Shown here: in pieces, positions 1-7,277 of the stretch
How positions within the stretch are numbered: position 1 is the stretch's first letter
How the letters are laid out: each line of letters opens with the position of its first letter
Source of the DNA: an uncultured Sangeribacter sp.
GTDB taxonomy: Bacteria; Bacteroidota; Bacteroidia; Bacteroidales; Muribaculaceae
Reading direction: 5' to 3'
NCBI GenBank assembly: GCA_964499025.1
Contig: CAZCJC010000009.1
Span: 3,519-67,518, forward strand
DNA length: 64,000 bases
Made by a program: the position numbers and the translations under genes
The notes under the pieces: model-generated
The model's database searches: none
What the model saw: the letters and a program-made list of their open reading frames with translations, nothing else
What the model was told of the DNA's origin: nothing

Positions 1-840
1 TGATGCTCCATATGTAGCGGCTGCCTTAATAGATTTGCGGCGGGATTTATTCTGCTTAAGGAAGAAACTAACTGTCATCGGTATCATTGGCCACACACAA
101 GGTGTTACCAAAGCAATTAGTCCGCCAATGAATCCTGCTATGAAAATATACCACAGACTTCGGCTCTGTTGCTCGGGTGCATTCTTGAAGGCCCGGATCT
201 CAGCTTCGCAGTTTCTCCACCAATTATCCGCGTGAACATTTGAAAGGTTGGCAGCCGGCATCATGAAAGATTCCGAGGATTGAAGTGAATCAGTCATTTC
301 TACTAATTCTTCCAATTTAGTTTCATCCTGGACTTCCTTAGTGTTTTCAGTTACAGATTTGTTCTCTTGCTCTGCTTTGCTGGCCAAGGAATTATTTACG
401 ATTCCGGTTCCGGAAACAGTATGAGAATCGAAAACTTGGTAACACCCATTATCATCACAAACCTGACCTTGAATCTCAATTTTAGCTGTAAAATGTTTGT
501 CAGTTGGTATCAGCTTCTGTGAAAATTTTACGGTTCCGGTATAGTAGTGCTCGTTGGTTTCAAAGATGTCGTTATAAGCTTTCGTGTATGGTCGATCCGC
601 TTTAATAGGTCCATCAGTCTTGCATCCCGTCAAATCAAAATGAATCTCCAACGCACCTGCACCACCTTCCGGATTGTCGAGAGAATACAGATGATAACCT
701 CGGTCAATTTTGGCTGTTATCTCAATAACCGGGGTAGCAGTATTATCTCCAGTTAGGTTAAATGACCAGTTCACATGTTCTGCGCCATATGCCCCTAAGA
801 CAGCAACGAGGGATATAAGAATTGATAGAAATCGAGTCAT
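1..840 (-). CDS. dsbD: Thiol:disulfide interchange protein DsbD family (C-terminal part runs off the window)
   Basis: Not in ORF track; read manually from ATG at 840: MTRFLSILISLVAVLGAYGAEHVNWSF..., N-domain Cys pair QVCDDNGC, transmembrane motif GGLIALVTPCVWPMIPMTVSFFLK; open to base 1. Confidence 0.85.
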   Translation of the reverse strand, partial: MTRFLSILISLVAVLGAYGAEHVNWSFNLTGDNTATPVIEITAKIDRGYHLYSLDNPEGGAGALEIHFDLTGCKTDGPIKADRPYTKAYNDIFETNEHYYTGTVKFSQKLIPTDKHFTAKIEIQGQVCDDNGCYQVFDSHTVSGTGIVNNSLASKAEQENKSVTENTKEVQDETKLEELVEMTDSLQSSESFMMPAANLSNVHADNWWRNCEAEIRAFKNAPEQQSRSLWYIFIAGFIGGLIALVTPCVWPMIPMTVSFFLKQNKSRRKSIKAAATYGAS

Positions 841-858
841 GATAATGTATAAAAATTT

Positions 859-890
859 TTTGTAAAATTAATAATTTCTTCTTATATTTG
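859..890 (+). promoter_or_regulatory. Bacteroidetes housekeeping-sigma promoter for the ior operon
   Basis: TTTG (859-862) - 20 nt - TATATTTG (883-890) matches TTTG-N19-21-TAnnTTTG. Confidence 0.7.
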
Positions 891-975
891 CAATCATCCA
901 AACTATAGAACTCCGTGATTTGAGATAAATTGTTTTTGGATCGAACTGATTCTAATTACTACGAAATAACCAACC

Positions 976-2598
976 ATGAAAACCAAGCATTTATTACTGG
1001 GTGATGAAGCTTTTGCTTTAGGAGCCCTGAATGCCGGCCTTTCAGGCGCTTATGCCTATCCCGGTACCCCCTCTACAGAAATAATGGAATTTATTCAACT
1101 TCATCCTATAACCAAGGAGCGAAGTATTCATAGCCACTGGTCTTCAAATGAAAAGACTGCAATGGAGGAAGCATTGGGTATGTCGTTTTGCGGAAAGAGG
1201 GCAATCACATCAATGAAACATGTAGGCCTTAATGTAGCAGCTGATGCATTCGTGAATTCCGCAATGACAGGAGCAAATGGTGGTTTGCTTGTTGTGGCCG
1301 CTGATGATCCTTCGATGCATTCTTCTCAGAATGAACAGGATTCTCGTTTCTATGCAGATTTTGCAATGATTCCTGCACTTGAACCATCAAATCAGCAGGA
1401 AGCGTATGATATGGCAAGATACGGTTTTGAATTATCGGAAAAATTCGGGATACCGGTACTTTTGAGATTTGTAACTCGTCTTAGCCATTCTCGAGCAGTG
1501 GTTGAAGCTGATGATACCCCTATGGATCAGAATGAAAAGAGTTATCCCGTCAATCCGAAACAATGGGTTCTTATGCCAGCAATGTCCAAAATCAGGAATC
1601 GACAGCTCATTAAGGATCTGGAAAGTTTTGTAGATAGCTCTGACAGCTCTCCATTTAATAAATTTGAGGATGGTAACAACCATAAAATAGGAATAGTAGC
1701 AAGTGGAATAGGTTATAACTATCTTAAAGAAGCGTTTGGGGGCGTGGTGCCATTCCCGGTTGTTAAGGTTAGCCAGTATCCTTTACCAAAGAAGCTTATA
1801 AAGAAATTGTATAATGAATGTGACTCAATTCTGGTTCTTGAGGAGGGACAGCCTTTCATTGAGCAAAAATTAAGAGGCCTTCTTGATGTCGGTAAGCGTA
1901 TTTATGGTAAGTTAACCGGGGAAGTTGTAAGGGATGGTGAACTTACTCCCGATGAAGTAAAAAAGACTTTTGGTAAGATAGCTCCGGAGGTTGTCGGGTC
2001 AGAAGGAGAGGGTAAATTATCTATTTCAGAATCTGTTGTGTCACGTCCGCCGGCTTTGTGTCAAGGTTGCGGACATAGGGACGTGTATGGTGCTCTAAAT
2101 GAAGTATTGGCATCTTATGACTCTCCGAAAGTATTTGGGGATATAGGTTGTTATACTCTTGGATTCCTCAAGCCCTTCAATGCAATTGACACTTGTGTTG
2201 ATATGGGAGCTTCAATAACAATGGCTAAGGGTGCATCTGATGCCGGACAGCATCCGGCAGTGGCAATCATTGGAGATTCCACATTTACCCACAGCGGAAT
2301 GACTGGTTTACTTGACGCCATAAATGAGAATGCAAATATGACGGTCATAATATCTGATAATCTAACAACCGGAATGACCGGAGGTCAGGATTCACAGGGG
2401 ACAGGAAAAATTGAAGAGATTTGTCTGGGCTTGGGTGCTTCCGAAGGACATGTCAGGACTATTGATTCATTGCCGAAGAATCATGAGGAGATGGTAAAAC
2501 TTTTCAAAGAGGAGATAGATTATCCTGGCTTATCGGTAATTGTTTCCAGAAGGGAATGCATACAGACAGCGAGACGCCATGCATCGGCAAAAAAATAA
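976..2598 (+). CDS. iorA: Indolepyruvate:ferredoxin oxidoreductase alpha subunit
   Basis: LLGDEAFALGA, AYPGTPSTEI, NEKTAME, MKHVGLNVAAD, RPPALCQGCGH, GDIGCYTLG, TPP motif GDSTFTHSG. Confidence 0.93.
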   Translation: MKTKHLLLGDEAFALGALNAGLSGAYAYPGTPSTEIMEFIQLHPITKERSIHSHWSSNEKTAMEEALGMSFCGKRAITSMKHVGLNVAADAFVNSAMTGANGGLLVVAADDPSMHSSQNEQDSRFYADFAMIPALEPSNQQEAYDMARYGFELSEKFGIPVLLRFVTRLSHSRAVVEADDTPMDQNEKSYPVNPKQWVLMPAMSKIRNRQLIKDLESFVDSSDSSPFNKFEDGNNHKIGIVASGIGYNYLKEAFGGVVPFPVVKVSQYPLPKKLIKKLYNECDSILVLEEGQPFIEQKLRGLLDVGKRIYGKLTGEVVRDGELTPDEVKKTFGKIAPEVVGSEGEGKLSISESVVSRPPALCQGCGHRDVYGALNEVLASYDSPKVFGDIGCYTLGFLKPFNAIDTCVDMGASITMAKGASDAGQHPAVAIIGDSTFTHSGMTGLLDAINENANMTVIISDNLTTGMTGGQDSQGTGKIEEICLGLGASEGHVRTIDSLPKNHEEMVKLFKEEIDYPGLSVIVSRRECIQTARRHASAKK

Positions 2599-2625
2599 TT
2601 ATGAACCAGTTTATATTATAATACA

Positions 2626-3210
2626 ATGAAATCAGATATAGTACTGGCCGGAGTAGGTGGTCAGGGAATCTTGACAATAGCTACTATTCTTGGAGCTGCT
2701 GCACTCAAAGCAAATTTATATCTAAAGCAAGCTGAGGTTCATGGGATGAGCCAACGCGGAGGAGATGTTCAATCCAATCTCCGTATAAGTTCATCACCTA
2801 TTTATTCAGATCTTATTCCATTCAAAGGGGCCGATATGATCGTGTCGCTAGAGCCGATGGAGGCCCTTCGATATTTACCCTATTTATCTCCGGAAGGATG
2901 GCTTGTAACGAATACTAATCCTTTTATCAATATTGACAACTATCCTGAGATAGATATCCTAATGTCAGAGTTGAATCAATTGCCGAGAGTTGTAGCTTTT
3001 GATATGGATAAAATGGCAAAAGAACTTGGTTCGCCAAGAAGTTCAAATATGATATTATTAGGAGCTGCCTCTCCATTTATAGATATTCCTGAAAAAGATA
3101 TTGAGGAAGGAATAGCAAATCTATTTTCGAAAAAAGGAGAAAAAATAGTAGAAAGTAATATCCGGGCGTTTAAAGCAGGACGGAGCTTTTCAGAACAAAT
3201 AAAAAGGTAA
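2626..3210 (+). CDS. iorB: Indolepyruvate oxidoreductase beta subunit
   Basis: AGVGGQGILT, EVHGMSQRGGDV; follows iorA. Confidence 0.93.
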   Translation: MKSDIVLAGVGGQGILTIATILGAAALKANLYLKQAEVHGMSQRGGDVQSNLRISSSPIYSDLIPFKGADMIVSLEPMEALRYLPYLSPEGWLVTNTNPFINIDNYPEIDILMSELNQLPRVVAFDMDKMAKELGSPRSSNMILLGAASPFIDIPEKDIEEGIANLFSKKGEKIVESNIRAFKAGRSFSEQIKR

Positions 3211-3213
3211 GCT

Positions 3214-4527
3214 ATGTTTCCACTGAGTTTAGATTCTATGGAAGCCGCAATTCAGCGTTTGTCCATAATAGATTTAGGTTCTGCAACGATAAGACAGATC
3301 TGTTCTCTTGCTAATGAACTTGAGAATGAGGCCTCTGAAAAGATGGTTCACCTGGAAATTGGAAATCCGGGATTGGAAGCGGAGAGTTTAGGAGTCGAAG
3401 CAGAGATAAAAGCTTTGAGGAACGGGGTTGCCAATAAATATCCCAATATTCAGGGTATTCCCGTTTTGAAAAAAGCCGGAAGCGATTTTGTTAAGGCCTT
3501 TTTAAATGTTGACATTCCGGATAAATGTATAGTCCCTACTGTGGGGTCTATGCAAGGAAGTTTCACATTGATGCTTTTGTTGGGTCAGAGATTGAAAGGG
3601 AAGGATACCATGCTATTCCTTAATCCCGGATTTCCTGCTCAACGTCACCAGGCAAAAGTGTTGGGTCTTAAAGAAGCAGCCTTTGATATTTACTCATACA
3701 GAGGAGAGAAATTAAAGGCGAAACTTGAAAGTATCCTAAAGGAGGGAAATGTGACCGGAATAATATACAGTAATCCCAATAATCCGGCATGGACAAATCT
3801 AACCGAAGAGGAATTAGAGATAATAGGAACGCTTGCTACGAAATATGATGCCATTGTATTGGAGGATCTTGCATATTTCGGAATGGATTTCCGTTCTGAT
3901 ATCAGCACCCCTTATGCCTCTCCGTACGTTCCGACCGTGGCTAATTATACTGATAATTATATATTATTGTTATCCGGTTCTAAAATTTTCAGTTATGCCG
4001 GCCAGAGAATAGCCTTGGTTTGTATGAGCAAGTCGGTTTATGAGCGTAAGTATGATTTTTTCCAGAATTTTTATGAGATGCCGGCTTTAGGCGACGCATA
4101 TATCTATGGTGTGTTGTATTGCTCCTCTTCCGGAACATCCCATTCTGCTCAATATGCGCTTGCTGCAATGATGGAGGCAGCTGTAAAAGGTGAACTCGAT
4201 TTTGTTGGTCATTGCAAGGAATATGCAGATAAAGCGGAAAAAGCAAAAGAGATTTTCTTAAAAAATGGTTTTCATATCGTTTACGAACTTGATGGAGACC
4301 GACCGATTTCAGATGGGTTCTTTTTTACTGCCGGTTATGAAGGATTCTCTGCTGATGAATTGCAAAAAGAACTGCTCCGCTATGGTGTAGCATCTATTTC
4401 ATTGCAATCTACAGGAAGTACGCGTGACGGAGTAAGGGTATGTGTATCCATGATTCCGGATGAAGAAACGTTCGAAAAGCTCGATGGTTTCCTGAGAAAA
4501 TTTAATGAAGATCACGGTAAGAGATAA
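3214..4527 (+). CDS. PLP-dependent class I/II aminotransferase
   Basis: YSNPNNP, DLAY, SGSKIFSYAGQR (PLP lysine), VRVC; 3 nt after iorB. Confidence 0.88.
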   Translation: MFPLSLDSMEAAIQRLSIIDLGSATIRQICSLANELENEASEKMVHLEIGNPGLEAESLGVEAEIKALRNGVANKYPNIQGIPVLKKAGSDFVKAFLNVDIPDKCIVPTVGSMQGSFTLMLLLGQRLKGKDTMLFLNPGFPAQRHQAKVLGLKEAAFDIYSYRGEKLKAKLESILKEGNVTGIIYSNPNNPAWTNLTEEELEIIGTLATKYDAIVLEDLAYFGMDFRSDISTPYASPYVPTVANYTDNYILLLSGSKIFSYAGQRIALVCMSKSVYERKYDFFQNFYEMPALGDAYIYGVLYCSSSGTSHSAQYALAAMMEAAVKGELDFVGHCKEYADKAEKAKEIFLKNGFHIVYELDGDRPISDGFFFTAGYEGFSADELQKELLRYGVASISLQSTGSTRDGVRVCVSMIPDEETFEKLDGFLRKFNEDHGKR

Positions 4528-4532
4528 TCTTA

Positions 4533-5840
4533 ATGATACAGAATAAAATCAACTACATGTCGGCTTCTGAAGCCGTAGCATTGATTGAGAGTGGGGATCA
4601 TGTCTATATCCAGGGTTCCACTTCAATTCCTGAAGTATTGGTCGAAGCTTTGTCTGAAAGAGGGAATCAACTTAGGGATGTTACCATTTATTGCGCATTT
4701 GCGGTAGGTCGTCGGCCTTCACCGTTGTGTAAACCTGAATATAAGGACAGTTTTCTTGTAGACTCTTTCTTTGTATCGAATTCATTCAGAAACTGGATAG
4801 CAGAAGGATACGGGACTATGACTCCCAGGTTCCTTGGAGAAGTGCCAGAATTATTCAGGGATGGCACCTGTCGAGTAGATGTTGCTCTAATAAATTGTTC
4901 GCTACCTGATGAGGATGGGTTTGTCAGTTTTGGAGTATCAGCCGATCTTGCCACAAGCGCCGTTGAATGTGCTAATCTGGTGATAGCACAAATAAATCCG
5001 AATGTTCCCTTCACTCCGGGGGATGCTACGATTCATATTTCCAAACTGGCTGCTGCGGTAGAGGTAGATGAAGAGTTGGTTGAGGTTCCCACAGCTATTC
5101 CTACAGAGAAAGAAATTGCAATAGGAAATTATATTGCAGAACTGATTCCTGATGGCGCTACATTGCAGATCGGGGTTGGTGGAATACCCAATGCCGTGAT
5201 ACGGGCCCTCGAGAACCACAAGCATCTGGGCTTGCATACGGAGGCAATGACCGATGGAGTGTTACCTTTGCTGGAAAAAGGAATAATTGATAATTCTCAG
5301 AAACGTGTGATGCCCGGAAAATCCGTTGCTTCGCTTGCCCTCGGTTCCAAATCTCTATATAAATTCCTGGATCATAATGAGGATGTCATATTTAAGGATG
5401 TTGCATGGACAAATGATCCCTTTATCATTGCCCAAAATCCAAAGGTAATGTCGATTAATTCATGCCTGGAAATTGACCTTACCGGTCAAGTATGTGCTGA
5501 CTCAATCGGTAAGAAGATTTATTCCGGAGTAGGGGGGCAACATGACTTTGTATATGGGTCCTCAAAAAGTGAGGGAGGAATTTCATTCCTCGCAATGTTA
5601 GCAACTACCGGAAAAGGAGAAAATAAGATAAAACCGGTTCTCACGTCAGGAGCCGGAGTTGTCACTACACGTTTTCAGACAAATTATGTAGTCACTGAAT
5701 ATGGGGCTGTCAATCTCCGGGGCAAAAATCTTGCGGAGAGAGCCAAGCTAATGATTTCTATAGCTGCACCTCAGTTCAGGGAGGAACTTGAAAGAGAGGC
5801 AGCTGAAAGATTCGGTTACTCATTTTTACGCCTTAAGTAA
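4533..5840 (+). CDS. Acetyl-CoA hydrolase/CoA-transferase family protein (4-hydroxybutyrate CoA-transferase-like)
   Basis: GATLQIGVGGIPNA, HLGLHTE (catalytic Glu), YSGVGGQHDF, VVTEYG. Confidence 0.88.
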   Translation: MIQNKINYMSASEAVALIESGDHVYIQGSTSIPEVLVEALSERGNQLRDVTIYCAFAVGRRPSPLCKPEYKDSFLVDSFFVSNSFRNWIAEGYGTMTPRFLGEVPELFRDGTCRVDVALINCSLPDEDGFVSFGVSADLATSAVECANLVIAQINPNVPFTPGDATIHISKLAAAVEVDEELVEVPTAIPTEKEIAIGNYIAELIPDGATLQIGVGGIPNAVIRALENHKHLGLHTEAMTDGVLPLLEKGIIDNSQKRVMPGKSVASLALGSKSLYKFLDHNEDVIFKDVAWTNDPFIIAQNPKVMSINSCLEIDLTGQVCADSIGKKIYSGVGGQHDFVYGSSKSEGGISFLAMLATTGKGENKIKPVLTSGAGVVTTRFQTNYVVTEYGAVNLRGKNLAERAKLMISIAAPQFREELEREAAERFGYSFLRLK

Positions 5841-5938
5841 CAATCCGGAACTTAGATAGACCATCATAGACGTAGATTTATACCTTAACTGAACATTCAG
5901 CTCTTTTTTGTTCTGAATGCATTTTAACGATTCTGATA

Positions 5939-5980
5939 AATAAATTGGAGTTGCTTAAATTTAGGCAACTCCAATTTATT
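5939..5980. terminator. Intrinsic terminator of the ior operon
   Basis: 16-bp perfect IR aataaattggagttgc / gcaactccaatttatt with A/T tails. Confidence 0.8.
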
Positions 5981-6156
5981 TTACTGATTTAATATTTTTG
6001 AAGTAATAAGAGCAGATTTAGATGTTTACTTAGTCAAGTGAAAGTATTTGAGAATTCTAAAATTTTTTTGAAAAAAATTAACAAAGAATTAAACCTATTG
6101 TATTATTAATGTGTTTAAAGTTCGGTTAATAATCAAAACAATCAAATGAATTCACT

Positions 6157-6258
6157 ATGAAAAGTAGAATCTTAGATGCAATTAAATCAGCCCTTGGAAA
6201 TTTTGGGGGTTATGGCTCTCCGAGACTACAGCCGGTACCGGTTAGAGTGAATCGTTGA
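6157..6258 (+). CDS. Small ORF, 33 aa (MKSRILDAIKSALGNFGGYGSPRLQPVPVRVNR)
   Basis: Read manually; ATG after an A-rich leader, TGA at 6256-6258; below the ORF-track cut-off. Confidence 0.5.
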   Translation: MKSRILDAIKSALGNFGGYGSPRLQPVPVRVNR

Positions 6259-6296
6259 TAAGAGAGGAGGGTTTAACCCAATCTTATCGGTGAGGC

Positions 6297-7277
6297 TTGA
6301 AGAGTGGCTATTATTCTTTAGAAAGAATGGATCATAGACATGAACATGGAAACTCCATACAGGAGTTAATGACAATTCATGCAGGTTGGGAAGCTCGCAT
6401 AATCAGGCGTGCGGTGATGATCGGATGTGCGGTCAACATCGCACTTATGTTACTTAAGCTCTCATTTGGATATTATGGTCACAGTGATGCTTTGAGGGCA
6501 GACGGATTCCATTCTTTGAGTGATGTCTGTTCAGACATTATCATGCTCGCATTTGTGGGAATATCCTTTCGGCCATCTTCTCGTAAATTTTCATATGGAT
6601 ATGGAAAATTTGAGACTTTCGCCTCATTGCTTATTTCCTGTCTGCTTCTATTTGTGACTTATCATATTTCCGAGCATGCGATTGAAGCAATCTCTTTATA
6701 TGCCCGTGGTGGAGTTCTCCCTCATCCAGATGGCTGGACGGTAATTGCTGTTTTAGTCGCTATGGGGGCGAAGGAGACACTTTTCCATTATTATAAATCT
6801 ACCGGTAAAAAAACGCGATGTTCTGCATTAATTTCAAGTGCGTGGCATCATCGTGCAGATGCAATGGCCTCTATTGCTACGTTAATAGGGGTTGGTTGTG
6901 CTCATTTTCTTGGTGAAAATTGGAGAATTCTTGATCCTGTTGCATCATTACTTATAGCATTATTGATACTTGTAACCGGATTACGGCTATTTATAAGAGC
7001 ATTCAATGAATTAATGGATACTTCTCTGCCGCGAGAAGATGTTGAAGAGGCAACAAATATTATTTTAAATTGTAAAGGAGTTGAAGGTATCTCCAAGATA
7101 AGGTGTAGGAAAAGTGGCCCTTACATGATATTTAACGTTATGATAGAGATTGATGGAAAATTTTCTATAAACCAGGGCTCCGTCATTGCCTCTGAAGTGA
7201 AGAACGCACTGATAGAGTGTTTCGGTTCTCACACAATGGTAGGTATAGAAACAAAACCATTTGTCAATTTTGAATAA
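6297..7277 (+). CDS. Cation diffusion facilitator family transporter (true start may be the ATG of MDHRHEHG)
   Basis: ADGFHSLSD and AWHHRADA (HxxxD/HxxxD metal site), YGYGKFE, cytoplasmic C-terminal domain. Confidence 0.9.
   Translation: MKSGYYSLERMDHRHEHGNSIQELMTIHAGWEARIIRRAVMIGCAVNIALMLLKLSFGYYGHSDALRADGFHSLSDVCSDIIMLAFVGISFRPSSRKFSYGYGKFETFASLLISCLLLFVTYHISEHAIEAISLYARGGVLPHPDGWTVIAVLVAMGAKETLFHYYKSTGKKTRCSALISSAWHHRADAMASIATLIGVGCAHFLGENWRILDPVASLLIALLILVTGLRLFIRAFNELMDTSLPREDVEEATNIILNCKGVEGISKIRCRKSGPYMIFNVMIEIDGKFSINQGSVIASEVKNALIECFGSHTMVGIETKPFVNFE

Follow-up and report, generated by a model that had tools for sequence, protein, structure and literature searches.

An ior operon of Muribaculaceae with a CoA-transferase at the place of phenylacetate-CoA ligase, and its possible role in arylacetate salvage

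The operon and its enzymes

The window studied here is a 64,000-nucleotide (nt) stretch of contig CAZCJC010000009.1 from a metagenome-assembled genome (MAG; GCA_964499025.1) of an uncultured Sangeribacter sp., a member of the Muribaculaceae. Near its start lie four consecutive forward-strand genes that probably connect aromatic amino acids with arylacetates and in which a CoA-transferase occupies the position that phenylacetate-CoA ligase (PaaK) holds in related operons. The first gene, iorA (976-2598, an open reading frame (ORF) of 540 aa), encodes the short Bacteroidales form of the alpha subunit of indolepyruvate (arylpyruvate):ferredoxin oxidoreductase (IOR), and iorB (2626-3210, 194 aa) encodes the beta subunit. 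They are followed by a pyridoxal phosphate (PLP)-dependent class I/II aminotransferase of the PDB 3g0t family (3214-4527, 437 aa) and by a family I coenzyme A (CoA)-transferase of the 4-hydroxybutyrate CoA-transferase (AbfT/Cat2) subfamily (4533-5840, 435 aa). The gaps between the genes are, in order, 27, 3 and 5 nt.

Approximately 85 nt upstream of iorA, a Bacteroidetes-type promoter was read directly on the same strand (859-890), with a -33 element TTTG (859-862), a 20-nt spacer and a -7 element TAtaTTTG (883-890); it fits the Bacteroides -33/-7 consensus and is not of the sigma-70 type. Past the stop codon of the CoA-transferase gene, a weaker first hairpin on the forward strand (5894-5919), whose minimum-free-energy fold has an outer stem of 7 bp, precedes a terminator-like perfect palindrome (5938-5981) with a 20-bp stem and a 4-nt loop. 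This second hairpin had a folding free energy of -34.5 kcal/mol when a 106-nt stretch was folded (z of -8.0), and none of 200 shuffled sequences was equally stable. Being A/T-rich on both sides, it could terminate transcription on either strand. A scan with sigma-70 and terminator consensus models listed neither the promoter nor the 5938-5981 hairpin, and both were then read or folded directly. An Rfam scan of positions 1-6400 found no riboswitch or leader element, the 5' leader of iorA included, and returned at 5938-5981 only microRNA models far under their gathering scores, as expected of a generic hairpin. As they share a strand, are closely spaced and lie between a single promoter and a single terminator, the four genes are predicted to form one transcription unit. 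An earlier sequence-only reading of this DNA had described this anatomy, and both the gap lengths and the gene identities that it proposed agree with the ORFs, the signals and the Pfam, NCBIfam and PDB matches reported here.

IorA contains the POR_N (PF01855) and thiamine pyrophosphate-binding TPP_enzyme_C (PF02775) domains. It matched model TIGR03336 over positions 2-540 of 595 (E 6e-164) with 546.6 bits, under the equivalog cut-off of 650.9, and the short form, of approximately 530 to 545 aa, is common to all Bacteroidales orthologs. Archaeal IorA bears a 2x[4Fe-4S] ferredoxin domain, whereas the IorA of the window has neither a CxxCxxCxxxC motif nor a Fer4 Pfam match and thus no such built-in domain. 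Five cysteines (Cys362, 365, 392, 483 and 528) are invariant in all 37 homologs aligned, and would serve a proximal [4Fe-4S] cluster. IorB was recognized by PF01558 (E 2e-38) and by the NCBIfam equivalog NF005324, with 303.3 bits over a cut-off of 222. From the PaaK and PaaI neighbours of sister operons and the published genetics of BT0430, an IorA homolog of Bacteroides thetaiotaomicron, the two subunits would act on indolepyruvate, phenylpyruvate and 4-hydroxyphenylpyruvate.

The aminotransferase belongs to PF00155 (Aminotran_1_2; 85.6 bits, cut-off 19.7) and is approximately 50% identical to PDB entry 3g0t over its full length (E 3.5e-129), with the motifs SGSK (Lys257, the PLP lysine, kept in 3g0t), NPNNP and EDLAY; no NCBIfam equivalog scored above its cut-off. 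Entry 3g0t, from Porphyromonas gingivalis, is a structural genomics "putative aminotransferase" with no assigned substrate, and its link to IorAB is made here by gene context and co-occurrence. Within the family the co-occurrence is strict. Our family sample comprised 151 Muribaculaceae genomes, and the aminotransferase was found in 37 of them, never without IorA (37/37) and with iorB adjoining in 36. Our order sample comprised 201 Bacteroidales genomes from approximately 148 families, most of them more than 90% complete; 165 had both the aminotransferase and IorA, 16 the aminotransferase only, 2 IorA only and 18 neither. The IorA orthologs, found in 167 of the 201 genomes, are single-copy and 55-64% identical, and at least eight other Bacteroidales families also have the aminotransferase linked to iorAB. 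Gene context and co-occurrence thus point to an arylpyruvate/aromatic amino acid aminotransferase, which would give the widespread 3g0t-type enzymes a probable role.

In two other Bacteroidales families (G277, locus L084; G200, locus L086), a VOR-like 2-oxoacid:ferredoxin oxidoreductase is immediately preceded by a 3g0t-type aminotransferase; the alpha, beta and gamma subunits of the oxidoreductase were found at both loci and a small delta-like ORF at L086. The substrates of this aminotransferase type may accordingly extend beyond aromatics. The genome from which the window comes, hereafter the source genome, encodes the same VOR-like oxidoreductase elsewhere (C1:34999-37898).

A CoA-transferase at the position of PaaK

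The product of the fourth gene has the two acetyl-CoA hydrolase/transferase domains PF02550 (AcetylCoA_hydro, N-terminal; E 1e-21) and PF13336 (C-terminal; E 2e-57), and its best PDB matches were 4-hydroxybutyrate CoA-transferases (3gk7, 2oas, 3eh7 and 3d3u; E 1e-100 to 1e-113). It shares with these AbfT/Cat2 enzymes the fold family, the length and the GVGGQ motif, and its Glu237, invariant in all 45 homologs, aligns with Glu238 of 3gk7, the catalytic residue on which the enzyme-CoA thioester is formed. It differs from them in standing in an aromatic gene context instead of a succinate-to-butyrate pathway. No 4-hydroxybutyrate partner was found, since an HpaB_N/AbfD-type 4-hydroxybutyryl-CoA dehydratase (PF11794) was absent from the source genome, which is 95% complete. 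The score against the butyryl-CoA:acetate equivalog TIGR03948 was 277 bits, far under its cut-off of 674.8. The close relatives returned by a homolog search, all of them from Muribaculaceae, are publicly named "4-hydroxybutyrate CoA-transferase".

Comparison with sister operons, found in other Muribaculaceae and in other families of the order, suggests a different function. The first type (variant A) consists of an omega-amidase-like gene, iorA, iorB, the same aminotransferase, PaaK and a 135-aa ORF. The second (variant B) consists of an amidase gene, iorA, iorB, PaaK, a 140-aa ORF, a PaaI-like hydroxyphenylacetyl-CoA thioesterase and a different aminotransferase. PaaK from two sister loci scored 578 and 570 bits against TIGR02155 (E 8e-174 and 3e-171), under the equivalog cut-off of 646.3. 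The 135- and 140-aa ORFs had no NCBIfam match; we presume them to be ACT-like, as in Bacteroides loci. The CoA-transferase of the window occupies the exact position of PaaK. No PaaK was found in the locus of the window, and no PaaK ortholog in the source genome, the best match there being a paralog with 30-31% identity. Because its position is taken and no ortholog is left elsewhere, we consider the CoA-transferase to be a non-orthologous replacement of PaaK that acts on arylacetyl-CoA and arylacetate. Judged by this gene context, displacement of PaaK by a transferase handling arylacetyl-CoA is the simplest reading, and the enzyme would then be an arylacetyl-CoA:short-chain-acid CoA-transferase. 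We know of no AbfT/Cat2-subfamily member that uses or releases arylacetates; they would probably be a new substrate class for the subfamily.

The closest known system is the BT0430 locus of B. thetaiotaomicron, with which the operon shares a short two-subunit IorAB, there a phenylpyruvate:ferredoxin oxidoreductase, and the arylacetyl-CoA intermediate; BT0430 itself is likely one of the order-wide orthologs with 55-64% identity. The B. thetaiotaomicron locus pairs IorAB with an adjacent arylacetate-CoA ligase, whereas the operon of the window has a family I CoA-transferase instead of PaaK, lacks the 135- to 140-aa ORF that follows PaaK in sister operons, and inserts an aminotransferase between iorB and the CoA-handling gene. 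The pairing of Bacteroides iorAB with a phenylacetate-CoA ligase, noted in the sequence-only reading, was thus recovered in our neighbourhood survey. As the ligase adjoining a Bacteroides IOR has been assayed as an arylacetate-CoA ligase (PMC13285125), the presence of PaaK in sister loci makes aromatic substrates well supported by context.

A comparable logic is known from Clostridium scatologenes, in which HpdDEFG-HpdJ-HpdK (PMC13285125) combine an arylpyruvate:ferredoxin oxidoreductase with a reversible, energy-conserving release of the arylacetate, as proposed here. However, that oxidoreductase has four subunits, the release proceeds through a phosphotransacylase and a kinase instead of a single CoA-transferase, and the cluster has no aminotransferase. 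While IorAB associated with PaaK and a role for IOR in phenylacetate metabolism are already known, our literature search found no description of an IOR-aminotransferase-CoA-transferase operon, in Muribaculaceae or elsewhere, nor of a link between such an operon and the loss of prephenate dehydratase.

Homologs of the CoA-transferase also occur as stand-alone genes in nine Muribaculaceae genomes without ior genes (L045-L053). These copies are 63-68% identical to that of the window, have no conserved neighbours and form one clade (support 100) with a long stem, nested among operon-linked copies; they may differ from the latter in function. We considered an arylacetate pocket reshaped in the operon-linked enzymes and dropped the idea, as the two positions that distinguish the groups are too few to argue from.

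The PaaK-type operons open with a gene for a 248-aa carbon-nitrogen hydrolase of the PRK10438 type, which is omega-amidase-like (L054, L055, L056, L059, L070, L072 and L073; 278 bits at L055). Its place beside an aminotransferase suggests that glutamine serves as amino donor there, with hydrolysis of 2-oxoglutaramate pulling amination forward. In the source genome, the only omega-amidase-like copy is unlinked and 42% identical (L088:3694-4494).

Carriers of the cluster and their missing amino acid pathways

The gene order iorA-iorB-aminotransferase-CoA-transferase was found in 17 of 17 genus relatives whose contig was long enough to show it, and close loci come from Muribaculaceae of mouse and human gut. 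A cultured strain, Muribaculaceae bacterium Isolate-036 (Harlan), has the operon too, on contig RIAY01000025 (L040). In the family sample, which was drawn evenly, 27 of 151 genomes had all three marker genes, on one contig and at operon spacing in every case except G043 and G121. Five more distant carriers that we examined had the identical order, and in total it was seen in 10 further genera of the family and, outside it, in G275 and G215, which belong to two other families of the order. Given this recurrence, the arrangement is not a product of chance. In the IorA tree, the sequences linked to the aminotransferase form one clade (support 97), and those of the PaaK-type variant A, which come from six families, are likewise grouped in a clade (support 98). 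Only two changes are needed to account for the CoA-transferase label, where 11 were expected with shuffled labels. The operon types can therefore be treated as units. The IorA of G275 falls among Muribaculaceae sequences, which suggests that the operon moved between families.

The distribution of the cluster coincides with gaps in amino acid biosynthesis. Absences were scored with six-frame hidden Markov model searches. No prephenate dehydratase was found in the source genome, whereas B. thetaiotaomicron, used as a control, has one. Of the pheA operon of its relatives, neither the prephenate dehydrogenase nor the pathway aminotransferase had an ortholog in the source genome, and TrpA, TrpC and a canonical TrpB were not found. 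It retains chorismate synthase and a 3-deoxy-D-arabino-heptulosonate 7-phosphate (DAHP) synthase-chorismate mutase. When the 27 carriers were compared with the other 124 family genomes by Fisher tests, prephenate dehydratase was absent from 23 carriers and from 9 others (odds ratio 73). The corresponding numbers were 26 and 77 for TrpA (odds ratio 16), 24 and 39 for HisD (odds ratio 17) and 22 and 23 for IlvD (odds ratio 19). Carriers are hence broad auxotrophs whose tightest tie is to the phenylalanine (Phe) branch. The tie persists among family genomes without HisD and IlvD, in which prephenate dehydratase was missing from 20 of 21 carriers and from 5 of 18 non-carriers. It is also visible within genera: in genus group g19, the sole member without the operon is the sole one that keeps prephenate dehydratase, and similar contrasts were seen in g33, g44, g28 and g43.

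Across the order, prephenate dehydratase (PF00800) was missing from 115 of 201 genomes (57%), which makes apparent Phe auxotrophs unexpectedly common. Nearly all of them have the other two markers, as 112 possess the aminotransferase and 103 IorA. Conversely, 17 of the 20 order genomes without the aminotransferase keep the dehydratase. We read this co-distribution of the cluster, and of the aminotransferase more widely, with dehydratase loss as a sign that an IOR module makes the prephenate branch dispensable. The two carriers from outside the family, G275 and G215, both lack the dehydratase.

Two further genes of the source genome touch on aromatic metabolism. The DAHP synthase, with its C-terminal chorismate mutase fusion, lies on contig C11 (L089:3300-4385, forward strand) and is followed by an ECF sigma factor, in place of the pheA-operon genes found there in relatives (L066). 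Either prephenate is left without a known consumer in this genome, or the chorismate mutase domain has a purely regulatory role. Contig C40 encodes a stand-alone TrpB-like PLP enzyme (L087:3499-4872, forward strand; NF009057, 702 bits over a cut-off of 366). It may salvage indole with serine to tryptophan (Trp), which would be a second sign that aromatic precursors are scavenged.

Direction of flux and competing readings

We favour a route of three reversible steps. The aminotransferase would interconvert an aromatic amino acid and its arylpyruvate; IorAB would interconvert arylpyruvate, CoA and oxidized ferredoxin with arylacetyl-CoA, CO2 and reduced ferredoxin; and the CoA-transferase would interconvert arylacetyl-CoA and a short-chain acid (acetate or succinate) with arylacetate and the acyl-CoA. 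That the operon performs chemistry of this kind between aromatic amino acids and arylacetates, whatever its direction, we hold to be very probable. Since all three reactions are reversible, the genes alone cannot fix the direction. The sequence-only reading had presented a self-contained route to arylacetates; its aromatic chemistry is upheld by the PaaK context (PMC13285125), whereas the direction that it gave has no support as stated. "Self-contained" is also too strong, because genes outside the operon encode ferredoxin as well as the donor or acceptor of CoA and that of the amino group.

The absence of prephenate dehydratase, prephenate dehydrogenase, TrpA and TrpC from the source genome, and the way in which dehydratase loss tracks the cluster, make a biosynthetic direction at least as likely. 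Phenylacetate, 4-hydroxyphenylacetate and perhaps indole-3-acetate from the gut would be activated through CoA transfer, at approximately one ATP equivalent compared with two for PaaK. Sugar fermentation would provide the reduced ferredoxin for reductive carboxylation of the arylacetyl-CoA, and transamination would then yield Phe, tyrosine (Tyr) and possibly Trp, so that arylacetate salvage would replace the lost prephenate branch. This net anabolic direction, together with the chemistry, is the reading that we favour, tentatively and with slightly more doubt than conviction. What the genes are, how the operon is built and conserved, the displacement of PaaK, the missing prephenate enzymes and the co-distribution are observations, whereas the substrates of the individual enzymes, the CoA donor and the flux direction are inferred.

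There are precedents for such a route. Rumen Bacteroidales were reportedly seen by Allison, in the 1960s, to convert phenylacetate to Phe and indoleacetate to Trp by carboxylation. Among methanogens, Methanococcus maripaludis is one case of an anabolic IOR. An anabolic IOR has likewise been proposed for Methanobacterium thermoautotrophicum, according to a citation in PMC13285125, in which an anabolic Bacteroides IOR resembling that of methanogens is argued to be possible, and PMC7356843 mentions that Phe can be made from phenylacetate. The route proposed in these organisms is the same, from arylacetate through arylacetyl-CoA and arylpyruvate to the amino acid at the expense of reduced ferredoxin. 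However, activation of the acid depends on an ATP-consuming ligase in methanogens and rumen bacteria, while the operon of the window would use CoA transfer. A screen of 66 Bacteroidota strains, none of which gave quantifiable indole-3-acetate, also fits the anabolic direction (bioRxiv 10.64898/2026.01.29.702580).

Several observations count against arylacetate salvage, and some of them favour the opposite flux, in which imported Phe, Tyr and Trp would be transaminated and then oxidized by IorAB to arylacetyl-CoA with loss of CO2, the CoA passed to acetate or succinate and the arylacetates released, with ATP gained through acetate kinase. We regard this catabolic operon as possible, if rather doubtful. 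Deletion of BT0430 abolishes phenylacetate formation by B. thetaiotaomicron in vitro and lowers phenylacetylglutamine in the host, according to a passage in bioRxiv 10.64898/2026.09.28.754936 that cites Zhu 2023, and this phenotype indicates that oxidative flux is real in Bacteroidales. The operon with the CoA-transferase has lost what would otherwise push flux toward the amino acid, namely the ATP-driven ligase, the linked omega-amidase-like gene and the small ORF that we presume to be ACT-like. A transferase is also the enzyme of choice for conserving energy in oxidation, because it retains the thioester that an AMP-forming ligase or a thioesterase would not, and the swap of PaaK would thus make oxidation pay. 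Acetate kinase is present in the source genome. With HisD and IlvD missing as well, the cell depends on outside histidine and branched-chain amino acids. Amino acids or peptides taken up in this way would furnish the substrate, and dehydratase loss could be plain auxotrophy. These two further absences weaken the specificity of the dehydratase loss, which now shows only in the larger odds ratio and the within-genus contrasts. The Fisher tests overstate significance because the genomes are related, the absences were scored in MAGs rather than finished genomes, and the two out-of-family carriers weigh little when 57% of the sampled Bacteroidales lack the dehydratase.

On the other side, oxidation does not readily explain why HisD- and IlvD-less genomes keep prephenate dehydratase in 13 of 18 non-carriers and in only one of 21 carriers; a loss tied to the cluster would be hard to understand if Phe could just be imported in abundance. 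For a glycan specialist, it would be risky to oxidize an amino acid that it is unable to synthesize. The lack of quantifiable indole-3-acetate noted above speaks against release too, and we know of no arylacetate-releasing CoA-transferase of this subfamily.

Both directions presuppose aromatic substrates. It is unlikely, in our estimation, that the operon instead serves branched-chain or other 2-oxoacids, interconverting isovalerate, isobutyrate and 2-methylbutyrate with leucine, valine and isoleucine, or that a 4-hydroxybutyrate or butyrate CoA-transferase merely rides in it. The public name of close relatives and the top PDB and NCBIfam matches (4-hydroxybutyrate and butyryl-CoA:acetate transferases) would suit this view, and so would the lack of IlvD in 22 of 27 carriers and the same aminotransferase beside a four-subunit VOR-like oxidoreductase in two other families. 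In the alignment of 45 homologs, moreover, T30 and A140 alone separate operon-linked from stand-alone CoA-transferases, and the substrate range of these oxidoreductases is poorly predicted by sequence (bioRxiv 10.64898/2026.01.29.702580). Against it stand the exact PaaK position of the CoA-transferase, with a PaaI-type hydroxyphenylacetyl-CoA thioesterase in one sister variant, the IorB score above its equivalog cut-off, and the separate VOR-like enzyme that the source genome has for branched-chain acids. The missing AbfD-type dehydratase and the low TIGR03948 score likewise disfavour a 4-hydroxybutyrate or butyrate function. That the four genes are neighbours without a shared pathway is highly improbable in view of their conserved order across genera and families, the gaps of 3-27 nt, the strict co-occurrence of aminotransferase and IorA in the family, and the IorA tree with its six-family PaaK-type clade and few label changes.

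The direction matters because host-active metabolites such as phenylacetylglutamine, p-cresol conjugates and ligands of the aryl hydrocarbon receptor derive from phenylacetate, 4-hydroxyphenylacetate and indole-3-acetate made by gut bacteria, and because the direction of Bacteroidales IOR is disputed, with the genetics of B. thetaiotaomicron indicating production and the biochemistry of the ligase indicating biosynthesis. The operon is a natural experiment in this respect, in that a reversible transferase has taken over from an ATP-driven ligase, a change that goes together with loss of the classical Phe/Tyr branch. If the flux is anabolic, Muribaculaceae would consume arylacetates, and genome-based predictions of their auxotrophies would be wrong. 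If it is catabolic, oxidative aromatic metabolism would gain one more energy-conserving final step, in addition to ADP-forming synthetases and the phosphotransacylase-kinase pair. Arylacetate salvage could, more speculatively, extend to obligate cross-feeding: carriers, and perhaps many dehydratase-less Bacteroidales, might make Phe and Tyr only from the arylacetates of their neighbours, by way of a new AbfT-subfamily arylacetate:acyl-CoA CoA-transferase and reductive carboxylation, and these abundant gut bacteria would then be sinks rather than sources of phenylacetate, from which the host metabolite phenylacetylglutamine is formed.

The operon is flanked in the window by a divergent gene for a DsbD-like thiol:disulfide protein (1-840, reverse strand) and by a gene for a CDF cation-efflux transporter (6297-7277, forward strand). 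The same flanks, which have no apparent functional tie to the operon, were seen in several genus relatives (L014, L020, L022 and L023). Another genus relative, G023, carries two full four-gene clusters on contigs C160 and C136 (L032 and L033), which could reflect a duplication or two strains binned together.

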